Below are positions 7,000 through 41,350 of a stretch of 41,350 nucleotides of DNA, one piece after another. Under the pieces are notes generated by a model. That model had not been told where the DNA came from. It did no database searches and saw only the letters and a list, made by a program, of their open reading frames with translations. Positions within the stretch are counted from its first letter, which is position 1. The number at the start of each line of letters is the position of its first letter. Origin of the DNA: a virus (lineage: Duplodnaviria > Heunggongvirae > Uroviricota > Caudoviricetes); the IMG/VR virus record IMGVR_UViG_3300045988_014834, positions 1 through 41,350 of that record, one strand, 5' to 3'. Both the position numbers and the translations under genes were made by a program.

Positions 7000-7005
7000 A
7001 TTCTG

Positions 7006-7632
7006 TTATCCTCGTTTGCCGTATTTGGCGTTAAGTTTTTGCTGGATTACGTCCGCACCACCGGCCCCGCCAGTAGAATTTTTGTTACCGGAAGCCCCGC
7101 CGCCGGTTGCTGCATCTGCTTTAATCAGATGCGAAAATGCTTTGTGCTCACGCAGATACTTTTTAAATTGCTCTGCGTCGGTGGTGATGACATTACCGTC
7201 TGCACCTGTGAACTTGGTCACAACGTCATCGCCGTCAAATTCGGTCTTGACCATCATAGCGATAATATCCGCTGCGCTCTCATCAATCAACATTCCAGAC
7301 AACTGGCTGATAACTGATTTACGTTCCGCGCCGAGGATACGCTCAGCCATTTTGCTAATCTTACCGTCTTTCTCGGCGAGTACTGGCTCATACTGACTGC
7401 GCAACGTTTTCTCGAATGCCTCAAGTTCGCCGTTCTGTTTTGCGCGTTCCTGTTCGGCTTTCAGCTTCGCATCTGCGGCTTCTTTAGCGGCAGCGGCAGC
7501 AGCTTTCTTTTCAGACAAGAGTTTCTCGTTGTTAGCTTTAAGACCGGATACCAGCGCGTCAACTTCTTCTTTTGTAAACGTGGTCTTAGCCTCTTGTTGT
7601 TCGATAATTTCGTCTTTCACTTCTTCGCTCAT
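7006..7632 (-). CDS. Scaffolding protein (track ORF starts at a TTG at 7683; likely ATG at 7632)
   Basis: Ala/Lys/Glu-rich coiled-coil composition, directly upstream of the capsid gene. Confidence 0.55.
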   Translation of the reverse strand: MSEEVKDEIIEQQEAKTTFTKEEVDALVSGLKANNEKLLSEKKAAAAAAKEAADAKLKAEQERAKQNGELEAFEKTLRSQYEPVLAEKDGKISKMAERILGAERKSVISQLSGMLIDESAADIIAMMVKTEFDGDDVVTKFTGADGNVITTDAEQFKKYLREHKAFSHLIKADAATGGGASGNKNSTGGAGGADVIQQKLNAKYGKRG

Positions 7633-7711
7633 CAGTATGTCCCCTGGACGTTGGAATCCGGGCCACCCGGATTTACATGTCAAGAATAAATTATTCCAAC
7701 ATGCAAGGCAA

Positions 7712-7975
7712 CTATTCCAGAATATTCCTCACGTAATCCTGCAACATGAACACTTTCAGCCGCAGCTGCCGTACACATTCGGCGTTCTGAACGTCGATGG
7801 CTAAATCCTCGTCAGCGTCGCTACTTGGCATCGCCAGTTTGCACGGCGGCTGCATCATCGTCGTATCCGGAGATGGAATTGGCGTTTGCGACGGCGCGGG
7901 ACTTGAGTTGCACGCGCTCAGGGTCAAAAGTGCACACGCTGCGACCAGGCGTTTTGATGTACTTAACGACTTCAC
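7712..7975 (-). CDS. o-spanin (Rz1-like lipoprotein), 87 aa
   Basis: Signal peptide with lipobox LSAC, Pro-rich mature region, starts inside the upstream gene in a different frame. Confidence 0.5.
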   Translation of the reverse strand: MKSLSTSKRLVAACALLTLSACNSSPAPSQTPIPSPDTTMMQPPCKLAMPSSDADEDLAIDVQNAECVRQLRLKVFMLQDYVRNILE

Positions 7976-8207
7976 GGGTAATCACCTCTGATTTCGTCTT
8001 GCCTTCGTTGTCAGCGGCTGCGGCCTTTGATTCATCCTGCTGCTGCCGTTGTGTTTTCTTCGCTAACTCAGCCTGGGCTTTCTGCTGTTGCTGCGAAACG
8101 AGATTCGCCCGGCCTTCGCTCCAGCCGCTGCGGTACTGATAGATGCCGTGTGCGTAAGCCAGGATGATGAAACATGCTCCTGCTACGACAGTTGCTTTAA
8201 GATTCAT
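7821..8207 (-). CDS. i-spanin (Rz-like), 128 aa
   Basis: N-terminal transmembrane helix then charged Gln/Lys-rich region; embeds the lipoprotein ORF. Confidence 0.5.
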   Translation of the reverse strand: MNLKATVVAGACFIILAYAHGIYQYRSGWSEGRANLVSQQQQKAQAELAKKTQRQQQDESKAAAADNEGKTKSEVITREVVKYIKTPGRSVCTFDPERVQLKSRAVANANSISGYDDDAAAVQTGDAK

Positions 8208-8306
8208 GTTTCCCCTTTCTCGATAAGTAAAGCCCCGCCTTAAAGCGGGGCGCTAGTCCTTATCATTTAAACATAGAAACGGCGTAATCTCAGTAAACCA
8301 GTTACT

Positions 8307-8460
8307 TTTTACACAAGCAATAGAGTATGGCCCTTCCGAACGCGTCAGCGTAACTACACTCAGGACTTACGTCCCGCTCCGTTACCTGCCCGCGCCGCGG
8401 TCGCTTGTTCACACTTCACAAGCTCAGGAGGAGCTTAGCACACTTTTAGTGAAAAGTCAA
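8307..8460. repeat. Conserved ~150-bp noncoding element, copy A (second copy 20382-20525)
   Basis: About 75 percent identity to copy B with compensatory changes in a hairpin (GGAC-TTAC-GTCC here, GTGCC-TAAT-GGCAC in B). Confidence 0.6.
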
Positions 8461-8522
8461 CTATTCGAATAGTTTATTCCAACATTTACAATTTAGTGGA
8501 ATAACTGGAATACATAAATAGT

Positions 8523-8551
8523 TTGCACACCCCGATATAATAGGGTACTAT
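8523..8551 (+). promoter_or_regulatory. Early promoter copy (TTGCAC N17 TACTAT) driving the methyltransferase
   Basis: TTGCACACCCCGATATAATAGGGTACTATTCAG. Confidence 0.6.
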
Positions 8552-8579
8552 TCAGTTAACTTGAACAGCAGGAGTTAAA

Positions 8580-9308
8580 ATGTTTACTTTGAAACGTGGG
8601 GATTGTCTGGAGTTGATGCATGACGTACCAGATAAGAGTGTAGACCTTATTTTATGCGATTTACCTTATGGTACGACGCAAAACAAATGGGATACGGTAA
8701 TACCTTTCGATGCCCTATGGGGCCATTACATGCGTATTTCTCGCGGTGCTATTGTGCTAACAGCAGCGCAACCTTTCACTAGCGCGTTGATTATGAGTAA
8801 TGCTAAATTGTTCAAATACTCGTGGGTTTGGGATAAGGCAAATAGCACTGGATTCCTTAACGCTAAAAAGCAACCTTTACGCCGAACAGAGGACGTGGTT
8901 GTATTTTATGGCTCACAGCCAACCTATAACCCTCAAATGGAAGTTAGAGGTAAGCCCCGTAAGAAAGGTGGGTATATTAAAAAAGACGGCTCTGACAACT
9001 ATGGGTCTTTTAAAAGTGTAGAATCTGTTAGTAATGATTACTACCCCACCAATTTGATAGAAATATCTAATGCTAATAGGTCGGAAAAGTGCCACCCCAC
9101 CCAAAAACCAGTAGCGTTGATGGAATACCTGATTAAGACGTATACAAACGAAGGGGATACAGTTCTTGATAACTGTATGGGCAGCGGGACGACCGGAGTT
9201 GCGTGTGCGAACACAAACCGGAAGTTTATAGGCATGGAGTTAGACCGTGATTACTTCCGTATAGCCAGAAGACGCATATCTGAAGCATATAAAACTAAGG
9301 CCCCTTAA
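8580..9308 (+). CDS. Orphan DNA methyltransferase (N6-adenine/N4-cytosine beta-class), 242 aa
   Basis: Catalytic-motif region DLILCDLPYG followed later by the AdoMet motif HPTQKP...VLDNCMGSGTT; no restriction enzyme partner nearby. Confidence 0.85.
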   Translation: MFTLKRGDCLELMHDVPDKSVDLILCDLPYGTTQNKWDTVIPFDALWGHYMRISRGAIVLTAAQPFTSALIMSNAKLFKYSWVWDKANSTGFLNAKKQPLRRTEDVVVFYGSQPTYNPQMEVRGKPRKKGGYIKKDGSDNYGSFKSVESVSNDYYPTNLIEISNANRSEKCHPTQKPVALMEYLIKTYTNEGDTVLDNCMGSGTTGVACANTNRKFIGMELDRDYFRIARRRISEAYKTKAP

Positions 9309-9320
9309 GGGGCCTTTTAT
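9295..9320. terminator. Bidirectional hairpin terminator (AAGGCCCC-TTAA-GGGGCCTT)
   Basis: Perfect hairpin between convergent genes. Confidence 0.65.
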
Positions 9321-9781
9321 CATTCTGGCTTAGTGACCTTCGCTGCTTTACTGACAGCCTCTACGCCGTCAGCATCGGTAACTTTAACGAAGTATCCACC
9401 GACGGCATTAACCGTCAGAGACAACGCCTCTTCAGGGGCGTTGACTACTTCCTTCCCGTCTTTGTACCAGGTAAGCGCATACGGAGCTTTACCCGCCTTA
9501 ACTTCGACAGAGATAGTGGCGCTGCCGTCTGCCAGTTCGACGTCTTTTGGTTGCACTGAGAAATACACGTCGCCAGCATCAGCCAGATACGGAATTTCAT
9601 AAAGCATACCAGCCGCGGGCAGCGCAATGCCGGTCTTGTCTGCAAACGGCATATCGTCTACTGGCGTACCTAGTACACTTTCGTCTTCAATAAACACCAC
9701 GTTCTCGCCGGAGCCAGACACGCGGGCGTACTGGACTACGCGACGCGACGGTACATCAGTTACTTTGAAAAATCCCATCAT
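9320..9781 (-). CDS. Structural protein with beta-rich (Ig-like?) C-terminal domain, 153 aa
   Basis: Position after the head morphogenesis gene; composition only. Confidence 0.3.
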   Translation of the reverse strand: MMGFFKVTDVPSRRVVQYARVSGSGENVVFIEDESVLGTPVDDMPFADKTGIALPAAGMLYEIPYLADAGDVYFSVQPKDVELADGSATISVEVKAGKAPYALTWYKDGKEVVNAPEEALSLTVNAVGGYFVKVTDADGVEAVSKAAKVTKPE

Positions 9782-10857: not shown

Positions 10858-10893
10858 ACTATAAGAAAGCCCCTTTCGGGGCTATATGTGAAC

Positions 10894-15858: not shown

Positions 15859-16347
15859 TCAACCTTTCACCGCGCGCCCAATAGCCTCAGCCTCCCGCCA
15901 CGGTTTACCGTCGAATAGTGCAAGACGTCCCGCGGTACGGCGACGCAGGCCGAGTAATGGTTTGCCGTTCTGGTTGATGAACAGCGCCAGCTTAGCCCGC
16001 AGCGTCGAGATATCGCCGGAACGCAGCGCCTTACCTGTGCCAGTAGTAGCGGCAATCACACCAGCACCTGCGTTGTATACCAGGTCACACACTGCGTCGA
16101 ACTGCGCCTGGGTCAGTGAATGGTGTGCTGCTGCATCAACCGCAACTACAGCCTTAGCCATATCACGATTCAGTAACAGGAGGCCTTGCCCCTTCGTAAT
16201 CTTCTGCCCTTCGTACACATGAGGGCCATAGCTTCCGTAGCCTATGGTTAAGTATTTTTCCGAAGGTGTCGCGCGGTATGCGGTCCCGCGGAATCCCTCG
16301 AACGCAGCGGTAAAATGCAATCCATTATCTGAAATGTTTCGAGACAC
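15859..16347 (-). CDS. Endolysin (GH24 lysozyme, T4 E / P22 gp19-like), 162 aa
   Basis: Catalytic region FEGFRGTAY...TIGYG and conserved C-terminal motifs; adjacent to holin-like genes. Confidence 0.85.
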   Translation of the reverse strand: MSRNISDNGLHFTAAFEGFRGTAYRATPSEKYLTIGYGSYGPHVYEGQKITKGQGLLLLNRDMAKAVVAVDAAAHHSLTQAQFDAVCDLVYNAGAGVIAATTGTGKALRSGDISTLRAKLALFINQNGKPLLGLRRRTAGRLALFDGKPWREAEAIGRAVKG

Positions 16348-16597
16348 GCTTATGCCCTCCGTATGATAGCCACGCCTGGCGAATCTGACGCAGCGAAACT
16401 AATGTGATTAATGTCTCCGGCAGCGTCGGCGACATGCCACCCTGTAACAGGTGAATACACCCGGCAGCGCAGACGATAGCAGTCAGGATATAGAGCACCC
16501 GACCAAATATCCCGTCGTCAACGCTGGGGTGATACACGTTAAACAGCGATGTGCCTCCGATCGCCAGCATACCGCCGAACCAGAATAACTCATTCAT
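16325..16597 (-). CDS. Holin/antiholin-like membrane protein, 90 aa
   Basis: Two predicted transmembrane helices; between holin and endolysin. Confidence 0.4.
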   Translation of the reverse strand: MNELFWFGGMLAIGGTSLFNVYHPSVDDGIFGRVLYILTAIVCAAGCIHLLQGGMSPTLPETLITLVSLRQIRQAWLSYGGHKRVSKHFR

Positions 16598-16898
16598 CTG
16601 TGCCTCCTCGACGTTCGATGTATTCTCCGGCTACGATGCCAGAAAGGCGGGAATAGATAGGCATCCAGAGAATGGCAATGATGAATCCGAGGCCAGCTAT
16701 CTCGCGCTCACCGGTAATACCGAACCATTGGGCAGCAAGAGGCGCGCCGAAAATGGCACACGCGAAGCCGGTTAGAAGAAATACCAGTCCGTCAATCGGC
16801 CCGGATATAGACTTTTTATGTTGTCTTAGTCCGACCAATCCACCTACCAGCGCGGCAGCGAGAAGCCACCCCGTCACTGTTTCAGTAAATTTATCCAA
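16590..16898 (-). CDS. Holin-like membrane protein, 102 aa
   Basis: Three hydrophobic helices, charged C-terminus, just upstream of the endolysin. Confidence 0.5.
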   Translation of the reverse strand: MDKFTETVTGWLLAAALVGGLVGLRQHKKSISGPIDGLVFLLTGFACAIFGAPLAAQWFGITGEREIAGLGFIIAILWMPIYSRLSGIVAGEYIERRGGTDE

Positions 16899-18276: not shown

Positions 18277-18307
18277 ATTCTGTCTCTCCTCTCGTTCGTG
18301 TAAATGA

Positions 18308-18336
18308 ATAGTAGCCTATTCTATCTTAGCGTGCAA
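18308..18336 (-). promoter_or_regulatory. Promoter TTGCAC, 17 nt, TACTAT (early-type, divergent spacer)
   Basis: Minus strand TTGCACgctaagatagaataggcTACTATTCA. Confidence 0.5.
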
Positions 18337-18575: not shown

Positions 18576-18595
18576 GAAAAATGATACGCTGCTGT
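18576..18595 (-). terminator. Hairpin ACGCTGCT-GTGT-AGCAGCGT followed by a T-rich run on the minus strand
   Basis: Read from sequence. Confidence 0.45.
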
Positions 18596-18638
18596 GTAGC
18601 AGCGTAAGTCACTCAGTAAAATCTTAAACTATTGAACA

Positions 18639-20153: not shown

Positions 20154-20187
20154 TTCTGAATTCCTTATGTCTCGTTCCGATAAGTGA

Positions 20188-20216
20188 ATAGTATACTATT
20201 ATGTTGGGGTGTGCAA
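20188..20216 (-). promoter_or_regulatory. Early promoter copy (TTGCAC N17 TACTAT) for the leftward early operon
   Basis: Minus strand TTGCACACCCCAACATAATAGTATACTATTCAC. Confidence 0.6.
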
Positions 20217-20381
20217 GAGATTAGTTACGTTGCCGTTGTGATTCTTTCGTTTCTTAAAAGAGTACGCAACGCAGTGGGTGGGCGTTAGCCCACCCCAGCG
20301 GAGTGAAGTACTCTCTACATTGCTTACGGCAACTATAGAAACTTTTAATTATCAGTGACTTGGGTATTTAGGCGGGATTAA

Positions 20382-20525
20382 CAATAGACTTTGGCCCTTC
20401 CGAAAGCGCCAGCGGAACTACACTCAAGTGCCTAATGGCACGCGTTGCGTTCCCTGCCGCTCCGCGGTCGCTTGCGATATCTCACAAGCTCAGTGAAGCT
20501 TAGCATATTTTTAAGTAAAAGTCAA
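20382..20525. repeat. Conserved ~150-bp noncoding element, copy B
   Basis: Aligns with 8307-8460 including covarying hairpins. Confidence 0.6.
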
Positions 20526-20572
20526 TACCAGTAGCATCTTTTGTATCTTAGTAACTTTGTGCGGTGTTTTGG

Positions 20573-20601
20573 TTGCTTTTACATTCCCGCTATCCTATAC
20601 T
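20573..20601 (+). promoter_or_regulatory. Rightward early promoter candidate (TTGCTT, 17 nt, TATACT)
   Basis: Read from sequence, upstream of the HTH gene at 20633. Confidence 0.45.
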
Positions 20602-20632
20602 CGGTTTCACCAAACCAACAGGAGATGTAAAA

Positions 20633-20815
20633 ATGCAGCATTACATGACACAGAATGAAGTAGCTGAACGTATCGGGGTGACCCGTCAGACAATTAATAA
20701 CTGGTTGCGCAGTGGTAAATTCCCGGATTGTTGTATTAAGGTTATGGGCCGCCGTTTACCAGGAACATTTGATCGTAATAAAGTTGAAGCGTGGATTAAG
20801 GAGAACGTGAAATGA
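20633..20815 (+). CDS. Small HTH DNA-binding protein (AlpA/Xis-like), 60 aa
   Basis: GGAG then ATG; HTH-like segment MTQNEVAERIGVTRQTINNWLRSGKFP. Confidence 0.5.
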   Translation: MQHYMTQNEVAERIGVTRQTINNWLRSGKFPDCCIKVMGRRLPGTFDRNKVEAWIKENVK

Positions 20816-23855: not shown

Positions 23856-23919
23856 GTCAATTACTCCTTAGTCAGTTGATATGTGAATAGTACCATATTA
23901 ATTATTTTAGAAAAGCCCA

Positions 23920-23948
23920 TTGACAAGTGAATAGCTCGCTATTATAGT
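23920..23948 (+). promoter_or_regulatory. Middle promoter TTGACA, 17 nt, TATAGT with embedded palindrome AATAG-N4-CTATT (23930-23943)
   Basis: ttgacaagtgAATAGctcgCTATTatagtt. Confidence 0.55.
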
Positions 23949-23979
23949 TAGCACATACCAAACGAGAGGAGCGAAACAA

Positions 23980-26522: not shown

Positions 26523-26552
26523 TTGACAACCTGAATAGTTAGCTATTATAGT
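26523..26552 (+). promoter_or_regulatory. Middle promoter TTGACA ... TATAGT with palindrome AATAG-N4-CTATT (26534-26547)
   Basis: ttgacaacctgAATAGttagCTATTatagtt. Confidence 0.5.
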
Positions 26553-26607
26553 TCTAATCACTGGCCGGGCAGTTCCCGGAGTAAACTTTGAAAAGCGAGA
26601 AATCAAG

Positions 26608-29922: not shown

Positions 29923-30203
29923 CTAAAGAGGGCCGCGTACAGAAATACGCAAAGGAGCGATTCGAGGCCCTCGGGGGCCTCGTTCGAAAGCTGTCTTATG
30001 AGGGACGCTCCGGCGCCCCCGACCTCCTGGTAATTCTCCCCGGCGGCATTGTCTGGTTTGTCGAGGTTAAGAAAGACGAAAATACGAAGCCAGACCCGCA
30101 CCAGTTACGTGAACATGAGAGATTTCGAAAACGTGGTGCAAATGTTTTTGTCGTCGGTTCGTTTAAACAGGTTGACGACCTAATAGCGAACTATTATAGT
30201 TAG
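29919..30203 (+). CDS. VRR-NUC domain nuclease, 94 aa
   Basis: Core PDLLVILPGGIVWFVEVKK (D...E.K PD-(D/E)XK pattern). Confidence 0.55.
   Translation: MTKEGRVQKYAKERFEALGGLVRKLSYEGRSGAPDLLVILPGGIVWFVEVKKDENTKPDPHQLREHERFRKRGANVFVVGSFKQVDDLIANYYS
30172..30200 (+). promoter_or_regulatory. Middle promoter TTGACG, 17 nt, TATAGT with palindrome AATAG-N4-CTATT (30182-30195)
   Basis: ttgacgacctAATAGcgaaCTATTatagtt, inside the 3' end of the VRR-NUC gene. Confidence 0.5.
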
Positions 30204-41077: not shown

Positions 41078-41350
41078 GATTTCTACCTTCAAAGATTGCT
41101 TCTAAGCCCATGATAATGTCTATCTCGAACAGGCTAAGCTGTTTTTGCGTAACATCGAGATAGGCTTTCAGGTCTTGCCACGTAACGGATTCTCTTGCGA
41201 ACAATACTACAGCGTCCTCGCGCGCGTGTCGCGTAAACTTAATGTCGCAATACGTCTCAAAGGTGGATATAAAAAGGGGTGGGCATTCTGGCCCACCCCG
41301 TCGCGCTGCACGTTTTTTCTTATCGATTACACCCATCGCGATAAGCGCCT
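41070..41350 (-). CDS. T-like -1 frame extension of the tail chaperone; in the circular genome it continues as 56-170
   Basis: Open minus-strand frame from the stop at 171-173 through the junction to 41070, ending in overlap with the tape measure ATG; no convincing own start codon. Confidence 0.45.
   Translation of the reverse strand, partial: ALIAMGVIDKKKRAARRGGPECPPLFISTFETYCDIKFTRHAREDAVVLFARESVTWQDLKAYLDVTQKQLSLFEIDIIMGLEAIFEGRNHG
41276..41299 (-). terminator. Terminator-like hairpin GGGGTGGGC-ATTCTG-GCCCACCCC with T5 on the minus strand
   Basis: Read from sequence; lies inside the chaperone extension frame. Confidence 0.4.
41296..41350. repeat. Second copy of the 55-bp terminal repeat
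   Basis: Identical to 1-55. Confidence 0.9.

Follow-up and report, generated by a model that had tools for sequence, protein, structure and literature searches.

A probable overlapped two-component spanin encoded apart from the holin and endolysin genes in a Kagunavirus genome

In phage lambda, the Rz/Rz1 spanin pairs a type II inner-membrane protein, which carries a helical periplasmic domain, with a small, proline-rich outer-membrane lipoprotein encoded in the +1 frame. LysB/LysC of phage P2 is the prototype of the overlapped spanin architecture, and PseT.3/PseT.2 of phage T4, whose lysis genes are classically scattered, is the prototype of spanins encoded far from the holin (t) and the endolysin (e). 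Other small phage lipoproteins of the outer membrane, such as Llp of T5 and Cor of phi80 and HK022, have exclusion roles. To our knowledge, RNA-only processive antitermination is essentially restricted to put elements of the HK022 type, whose read-through of terminators is independent of proteins and relies on the RNAP beta' zinc-binding domain. In HK022, put is formed by two stem-loops and occurs in two copies per genome, each located after a promoter and before terminators and long operons (PMC9378689).

Among the Guernseyvirinae, the spanins of phages Jersey, SETP3, K1G, K1H, and K1ind1-3 were grouped into one overlapped "Jersey" family of i-spanins and o-spanins, with an overlap of 155 bp in phage Jersey itself, and a "separated" variant was described in the same family (Kongari et al. 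2018, PMC6139136). The separation of these spanin genes from the holin and endolysin genes was stated explicitly in one study (PMC6763661). It is implied by gene numbering in Golestan (spanins ORF7/8 versus ORF66-68; PMC7203180), fBC-Eco01 (Gp11/12 versus Gp68-70; PMC9825357), and Jerseyvirus SeF1 (Gp009/010 versus Gp063-065; PMC9409062). The literature treats the Jersey spanin family bioinformatically, and we found no experimental test of it there.

Here we analyzed a window of 41,350 nucleotides, the whole of IMG/VR record IMGVR_UViG_3300045988_014834, which is a complete Kagunavirus genome (Guernseyvirinae, K1H-like). Its first 55 bp are duplicated exactly at its end (positions 1-55 and 41296-41350), and the assembly represents a circularly permuted genome of 41,295 bp, closed into a circle with an overlap of k-mer size. 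Across positions 7000-9400, the window shares 95-97% identity with Kagunavirus phages, among them K1H, HSE2, and phiSD1. Compared with K1H, a DNA methyltransferase gene (8580-9308, plus strand; Pfam N6_N4_Mtase) is inserted between the decoration gene and the spanin leader. Within 8523-9318, the gene is accompanied by a bidirectional terminator (9297-9316) and its own promoter-like repeat (8523-8554), which is repeated at 665-696 and, inverted, at 20183-20217. Jersey-like Salmonella phages also carry this methyltransferase gene.

Two overlapping spanin genes in the head module

Two minus-strand ORFs of this genome (Table 1) very probably encode the two-component spanin of the phage. The original prediction, made from the letters of the sequence, had described the longer ORF as i-spanin-like, with an N-terminal transmembrane helix and a charged periplasmic region, and the shorter one, which starts inside it in another frame, as o-spanin-like, with an LSAC lipobox and a Pro-rich mature part. 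Both descriptions were borne out by matches to spanin PHROGs, by the identity to the K1H proteins annotated as spanins, and by the curated "Jersey" family. The gene structure, the topology signals, the conservation of both frames, and the family membership are directly established.

Table 1 Features of the spanin locus and of related sites, in window coordinates
Feature	Position	Strand	Details
i-spanin gene	7821..8207	-	ORF 8207->7821, ATG start, 128 aa
o-spanin gene	7712..7975	-	ORF 7975->7712, GTG start, 87 aa
Dual-coding overlap	7821..7975	-	155 bp; o-spanin in +1 frame relative to i-spanin
GC-rich hairpin	8232..8251	-	Weak U-tract, terminator-like or attenuator; 12 nt before i-spanin ribosome-binding site
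Leader RNA element, copy A	8329..8431	-	P1 hairpin and long P2 hairpin; CM R1, 122.7 bits
Promoter-like site, copy A	8432..8460	-	-35 TTGACT (8460-8455), 17-nt spacer, TGcTAAGCT (8440-8432; -10 TAAGCT)
Upstream box ATGTTGGAATAAACTATTC overlapping palindrome CTATTCGAATAG	8461..8485	-	Perfect palindrome (8461-8472) abuts -35
Second copy of box ATGTTGGAATAAnnTATTC	7684..7702	-	Just after o-spanin stop, followed by TTGACA
Leader copy B and promoter-like site	20393..20525	-	Leader 20496-20393; -35 20525-20520; -10 20502-20497; CM R1, 81.7 bits
Endolysin	15859..16347	-	Soluble lysozyme without N-terminal TM/SAR segment; Pfam PF00959 Phage_lysozyme, E 2.1e-25; PHROG endolysin families
Second holin/antiholin	16325..16597	-	PHROG 2508
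Holin	16590..16898	-	PHROG 2359
GAATAG-N4/5-CTATT palindromes	20179-20201, 23878-23900, 23922-23951, 26524-26555, 30172-30203, 18299-18321

The ATG of the i-spanin gene is preceded by a purine-rich, Shine-Dalgarno-like stretch (AAAGGGGA). The N-terminus of the protein (MNLKATVVAGACFIILAYAHGIYQYRSGW) holds a hydrophobic segment followed by a hydrophilic part of 104 residues. The transmembrane domain covers approximately residues 3-21, with a Kyte-Doolittle maximum of 1.94 over residues 3-19 and Lys4 on the cytoplasmic side of the helix. Hydropathy and an AF2 helix over residues 3-64 agree on one transmembrane helix, at the N-terminus, followed by a C-terminal domain in the periplasm. The single-sequence AF2 model, which is too weak (mean pLDDT 59) to show more than a long helix at the N-terminus, adds a second helix at residues 69-79 and leaves residues 80-128 unstructured. 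The periplasmic part contains 31 charged residues, 11 Gln, and one Cys (Cys92). The protein matches PHROG 2536 ("Rz-like spanin") over its full length (E 3.5e-56), and its homologs in 47 loci are 63-98% identical and all keep Cys92.

The o-spanin gene starts 232 nt into the i-spanin gene and runs 109 nt beyond its end, an architecture of the "overlapped" type. A stop two codons before it leaves GTG 7975 as the sole start codon ahead of the signal peptide, and this GTG follows an 8-nt stretch that matches the extended Shine-Dalgarno sequence (GAGGTGAT, 7988-7981). The signal peptide (MKSLSTSKRLVAACALLTLSA|C, with the mature protein starting CNSSPAPSQTPIPSPD) has a basic n-region, a hydrophobic h-region, and the lipobox LSAC ending in Cys22, so that both an SPII signal and a lipobox Cys are present. 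The +2 residue is Asn and not Asp, and the lipoprotein therefore lacks an inner-membrane retention signal. The mature protein has 66 aa, including 8 Pro and Cys at mature positions 1, 24, and 46. It matches two PHROGs, 5672 (E 4.7e-30) and 1267 (E 5.7e-20), both described as "Rz-like spanin". A genome-wide scan for lipobox ORFs revealed no other plausible lipoprotein and no u-spanin candidate. The Pfam search gave no significant family for the spanins (best hit DUF2514, E 0.019, 15.4 bits against a cut-off of 26) and reported neither Rz nor Rz1 for the pair; what links it to lambda Rz/Rz1 is accordingly class and topology, sequence homology being undetectable.

The orthologs in the RefSeq entry of phage K1H, annotated as "Rz-like spanin" (gp06) and "Rz-like spanin; overlapping gene" (gp07), are 97% and 94% identical to the i-spanin and the o-spanin, respectively. 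In K1H they are flanked by a Hoc-like decoration protein on one side and by the proteins of the scaffold and the major head on the other, an annotation that confirms the predicted location of the pair in the head module. In many GenBank relatives the o-spanin ortholog is labeled hypothetical or omitted, and some annotate only one spanin. Correct annotation of the GTG-initiated o-spanin would be useful for the curation of phage-therapy genomes.

Using the i-spanin, we collected 47 related loci from viral contigs, of which one (L048) is truncated, leaving 46 that are readable for the o-spanin. In all 46, the +1-frame ORF is open, and its product has both a signal peptide and the lipobox Cys, which stands in an LSAC, LASC, LSGC, LNGC, or ITGC lipobox. 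The Cys moves by one residue between the LSAC and LASC variants, with the length unchanged. Mature Cys24 and Cys46, found in the contexts PPC and AEC, are likewise kept in 46 of 46, and the C-terminus (...LQDYVRNILE) is kept among the related loci. Both spanins thus have periplasmic Cys available for putative intermolecular disulfides.

Nucleotide diversity by codon position was computed over 39 distinct ungapped loci. At positions 1/2/3 it was 0.111/0.086/0.240 in the part that encodes only the i-spanin and 0.086/0.033/0.245 in the 109-nt tail that encodes only the o-spanin. In the overlap encoding the mature o-spanin, it was 0.127/0.098/0.152 at the i-spanin-frame positions, a flattening that is expected for two coding frames. 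From these patterns we conclude that both frames are under purifying selection. In five Jersey-like loci (L040, L042, and L044-L046), an Arg77-to-His change in the i-spanin coincides with a GTG-to-ATG change of the o-spanin start (window positions 7973-7978), because the same nucleotide serves both frames. One further locus (L036, 2501-2854) has the "separated" architecture, with a 118-aa i-spanin and a 14-bp overlap. Its o-spanin has a divergent N-terminal half and the same C-terminus, and the arrangement matches the FSL_SP-031 case of Kongari et al.

Promoter-like sites, a leader RNA, and sequence boxes around the spanin genes

Directly upstream of the spanin pair, with no coding sequence in between, lie a promoter-like site, a structured leader RNA, and a GC-rich hairpin. 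The original prediction had placed the pair just downstream of a repeated element (copy A) and a candidate promoter motif; both elements are real and conserved. Indeed, the arrangement of promoter-like site, leader, and hairpin is kept in all 46 relatives with enough flanking sequence, including Jersey-like Salmonella phages. A sigma-70 consensus scan of positions 7300-9500 called no promoter, and the copy-A site was missed because its -10 matches the consensus at 3/6 positions. Its conservation in copies A and B and in relatives nevertheless leads us to infer that it acts as a promoter. The hairpin in front of the i-spanin gene shows compensatory changes among relatives (GCCCUGC/GCAGGGC and GCCCGGC/GCCGGGC).

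Exactly two copies of the leader were detected in the window by a covariance model (CM R1) derived from 16 variants, and the next match scores 11 bits. When the whole window was searched with filters off, no third copy was found ahead of the tail genes. Two copies are present per Kagunavirus genome, and at least one is present in Jersey-like phages. Copy B heads a leftward block in which small genes are followed by those for the holins, endolysin, terminase, and portal. When folded independently by MFE, all 16 variants gave a short P1 hairpin, a linker of 0-2 nt, and a long P2 hairpin. The base of P2 is conserved (CCG-C-GGNGCG ... CGCNUU-CGG), its middle and apex are variable, and the 3' tail of the leader is invariant (AAGGGCC; UUCGGAAGGGCC).

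Strong covariation also points to a conserved RNA structure. Among 25 distinct sequences, in an alignment fitted to the model, 95.3% of cells were paired, compared with 28-45% in slid controls, and both partners had changed in 12 of 32 pairs. A MAFFT alignment made independently of the model gave 90.8% paired, compared with 31-41% in slid controls. Because of its G-U pairs, the RNA is assigned to the minus strand. Rfam gave no match at gathering thresholds over the whole window and nothing credible at E<=5 within 8150-8600. The leader belongs to no described family and is an undescribed structured element, and our literature search found no paper linking these phages to antitermination or to a leader RNA. 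When 20 early and middle proteins were scanned against PHROGs for Q-like or N-like antiterminators, a single HTH regulator (20564-20815) emerged, the other proteins being of unknown function.

We offer only as a tentative possibility, by analogy with put, that the leader is a cis-acting processive antiterminator, or the target of a phage factor, that would coordinate late expression of the split lysis genes. The leader RNA may also be an sRNA. If functional, it could represent a second, unrelated class of antitermination RNA in widespread therapeutic coliphages and salmophages and would explain late-gene timing. Minus-strand terminator-like hairpins lie in the leftward block downstream of leader copy B (18585-18606, 10868-10883, 9297-9316, and approximately 20274-20296), and transcription from 20.5 kb would have to read through them to reach the terminase and portal genes.

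Sequence boxes occur on both sides of the spanin pair. The box ATGTTGGAATAAnnTATTC has exactly two matches in the window (7684-7702 and 8467-8485, both on the minus strand), compared with 0.1 expected. The two copies bracket the spanin pair, and each lies upstream of a TTGAC(A/T) hexamer. The box is conserved in Kagunavirus relatives; Jersey-like relatives keep only its GGAATAAnnTATTC core. The copy downstream of the o-spanin gene, together with its TTGACA, is a candidate promoter for the scaffold and capsid genes. The longest scaffold ORF starts at TTG 7683 (minus strand), as annotated in RefSeq K1H, and this TTG is part of the TTGACA hexamer. ATG 7632 (minus strand), with the Shine-Dalgarno sequence GGGGA, is more likely to be the scaffold start.

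The last codons of the o-spanin gene (RNILE*, 7712-7729), AGG AAT ATT CTG GAA TAG, contain two more GGAATA motifs. In 45 of the 46 loci, Kagunavirus and Jersey-like alike, AAT ATT CTG GAA TAG is invariant, synonymous sites included. The exception (L034) has a Leu-to-Met change in the o-spanin end, and the preceding Arg codon varies synonymously among loci. The invariant synonymous sites suggest a DNA-level constraint that overlaps the coding sequence, possibly an array of regulator-binding sites across the end of the o-spanin gene. Palindromes of the form GAATAG-N4/5-CTATT are found in the spacer and -10 region of early-type promoters (TTGACA-17-TATAGT) and agree with the published PHIRE consensus tgAATAGTa-ccTATTat-T. 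The same half-site makes up the palindrome CTATTCGAATAG that abuts the copy-A -35. An HTH protein is encoded on the plus strand at 20564-20815. As the half-site is common to the early promoters and copy A, one regulator might repress the early promoters and activate the late one.

Separation of the lysis genes and the proposed function of the pair

The holin and endolysin genes were correctly predicted to lie at 15859-16898, distant from the spanins; their products are identified by Pfam and PHROG matches, and approximately 7.7 kb separates them from the pair. From the terminators and the dedicated promoter-like site, we reasonably infer that the lysis genes form two transcription units. The spanin genes would be the first cistrons of a leftward head-tail unit, behind their own promoter-like site, structured leader RNA, and hairpin.

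By analogy with lambda Rz/Rz1, we can propose how the pair would be localized, form complexes and Cys-linked homodimers, be timed in its expression, and disrupt the outer membrane. The N-terminal helix of the i-spanin would anchor it in the inner membrane, with its charged, putatively largely helical domain projecting into the periplasm. The same DNA, read in the +1 frame, would yield the o-spanin, which after export and lipidation at Cys22 would be sorted to the outer membrane, a destination predicted because Asn, not Asp, follows the Cys. Both proteins would accumulate in the envelope during late gene expression, where the conserved Cys could form disulfide-linked homodimers and the periplasmic C-terminal regions of the two spanins could bind each other, creating a bridge across the periplasm. 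The peptidoglycan mesh would keep this bridge inactive until the holin releases the soluble endolysin. Once the wall is degraded, the spanin complexes would fuse or disrupt the outer membrane and complete lysis. Since spanins would accumulate harmlessly before holin triggering, their genes would need late expression only and no linkage to the holin.

Other readings of the pair must be weighed. The ORF from 7975 to 7712 might be a chance open frame that is not expressed, the 128-aa protein alone being real. Its GTG start, its alternative frame, and its frequent omission by gene callers would fit, and several GenBank relatives annotate one spanin or hypothetical proteins. However, the frame stays open in all 46 readable loci despite a divergence of up to ~35%, the lipobox Cys and two further Cys are invariant, the 109-nt tail has the codon-position diversity given above, and a perfect 8-nt Shine-Dalgarno sequence lies 9 nt upstream of the GTG. 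Together with the matches to PHROG 5672 and 1267, this conservation, codon pattern, and ribosome-binding signal effectively refute a chance frame, to which we give next to no credence. If both proteins are made, they could still be a membrane protein and an outer-membrane lipoprotein with another role, such as superinfection exclusion or receptor masking, with the outer membrane disrupted by other means. Phage exclusion lipoproteins do exist, the pair is not adjacent to the holin and endolysin genes, and the literature yields no experiment on this spanin family. An exclusion or masking role is nonetheless very improbable: an overlap in the +1 frame with a type II membrane protein is the signature of two-component spanins, the family is curated as such (PMC6139136), and the genome offers no other spanin, u-spanin, or second lipoprotein candidate. 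In addition, the late-type leader and the position at the head of structural genes fit late expression, and exclusion genes are typically early genes or morons.

The transcriptional separation of the lysis genes is the less secure part of our interpretation. A termination-resistant RNA polymerase starting at the copy-B promoter (~20.5 kb) might read leftward through the holins, endolysin, terminase, and portal to the spanins and the head-tail genes, the copy-A promoter merely reinforcing this transcription, so that the lysis genes would not form two independent units. The minus strand carries all of the genes concerned, each block has the same leader RNA at its head, and minus-strand hairpins inside the block (18606-18585, 10883-10868, and 9316-9297) would need to be read through in any case. 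However, an opposite-strand methyltransferase gene (8580-9308), with its own promoter-like repeat and the bidirectional terminator at 9297-9316, lies between the blocks, and in methylase-less relatives the copy-A promoter region is immediately preceded by a strong terminator. The promoter-like site of copy A is also kept in all 46 relatives with enough flank. We therefore regard continuous transcription from copy B as unlikely, while giving it appreciable weight, and favor a spanin pair served by its own promoter-like site.

Comparison with described systems

The spanin pair and its position apart from the holin and endolysin are already known for this phage group. As both have been described for the Guernseyvirinae, the finding is an ordinary one. 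It illustrates that an overlapped spanin pair can be recognized by reading a sequence alone and that lysis genes need not be clustered, both points being already established for the Guernseyvirinae and T4.

The layout of leader copies A and B resembles that of putL and putR of HK022, as the nascent transcript would hold two adjacent stem-loops, two similar copies occur per genome, and each copy lies past a promoter-like site and before terminator-like hairpins (with weak U-tracts) and long operons. The leader is longer (~100 nt compared with ~70 nt for put), and its phage is virulent and non-lambdoid, unlike HK022. Searching the HK022 genome with CM R1 gave nothing significant, the best match (12.2 bits, E 0.67) lying outside the interval from IS903 to gene O in which the put sites are presumed to be. 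As Rfam has no family matching the scanned HK022 region (27.6-30.1 kb), the absence of an Rfam match for the leader is uninformative on its relation to put. The put-like resemblance of the leader is thus an analogy in layout.

The pair described here shares with lambda Rz/Rz1 the functional class, the predicted topology, and the periplasmic Cys, and Pfam detects no sequence homology between them. In lambda, Rz1 is embedded and the spanin genes are the last of an S-R-Rz/Rz1 cassette, whereas here the genes are overlapped and lie ~7.7 kb from the holin and endolysin. P2 LysB/LysC and T4 PseT.3/PseT.2 belong to sequence families that differ from that of the present pair, and the T4 genes are separated rather than overlapped. 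The closest described system is the "Jersey" family, which corresponds to PHROG 2536 and 5672: the proteins, the 155-bp overlap, the +1 frame, and the position between decoration and scaffold genes are the same. Compared with this family and K1H, the present lipoprotein has Asn instead of Ser at its +2 position, and the locus carries an inserted methyltransferase gene upstream of the region of the spanin leader; otherwise, there is no substantive difference.
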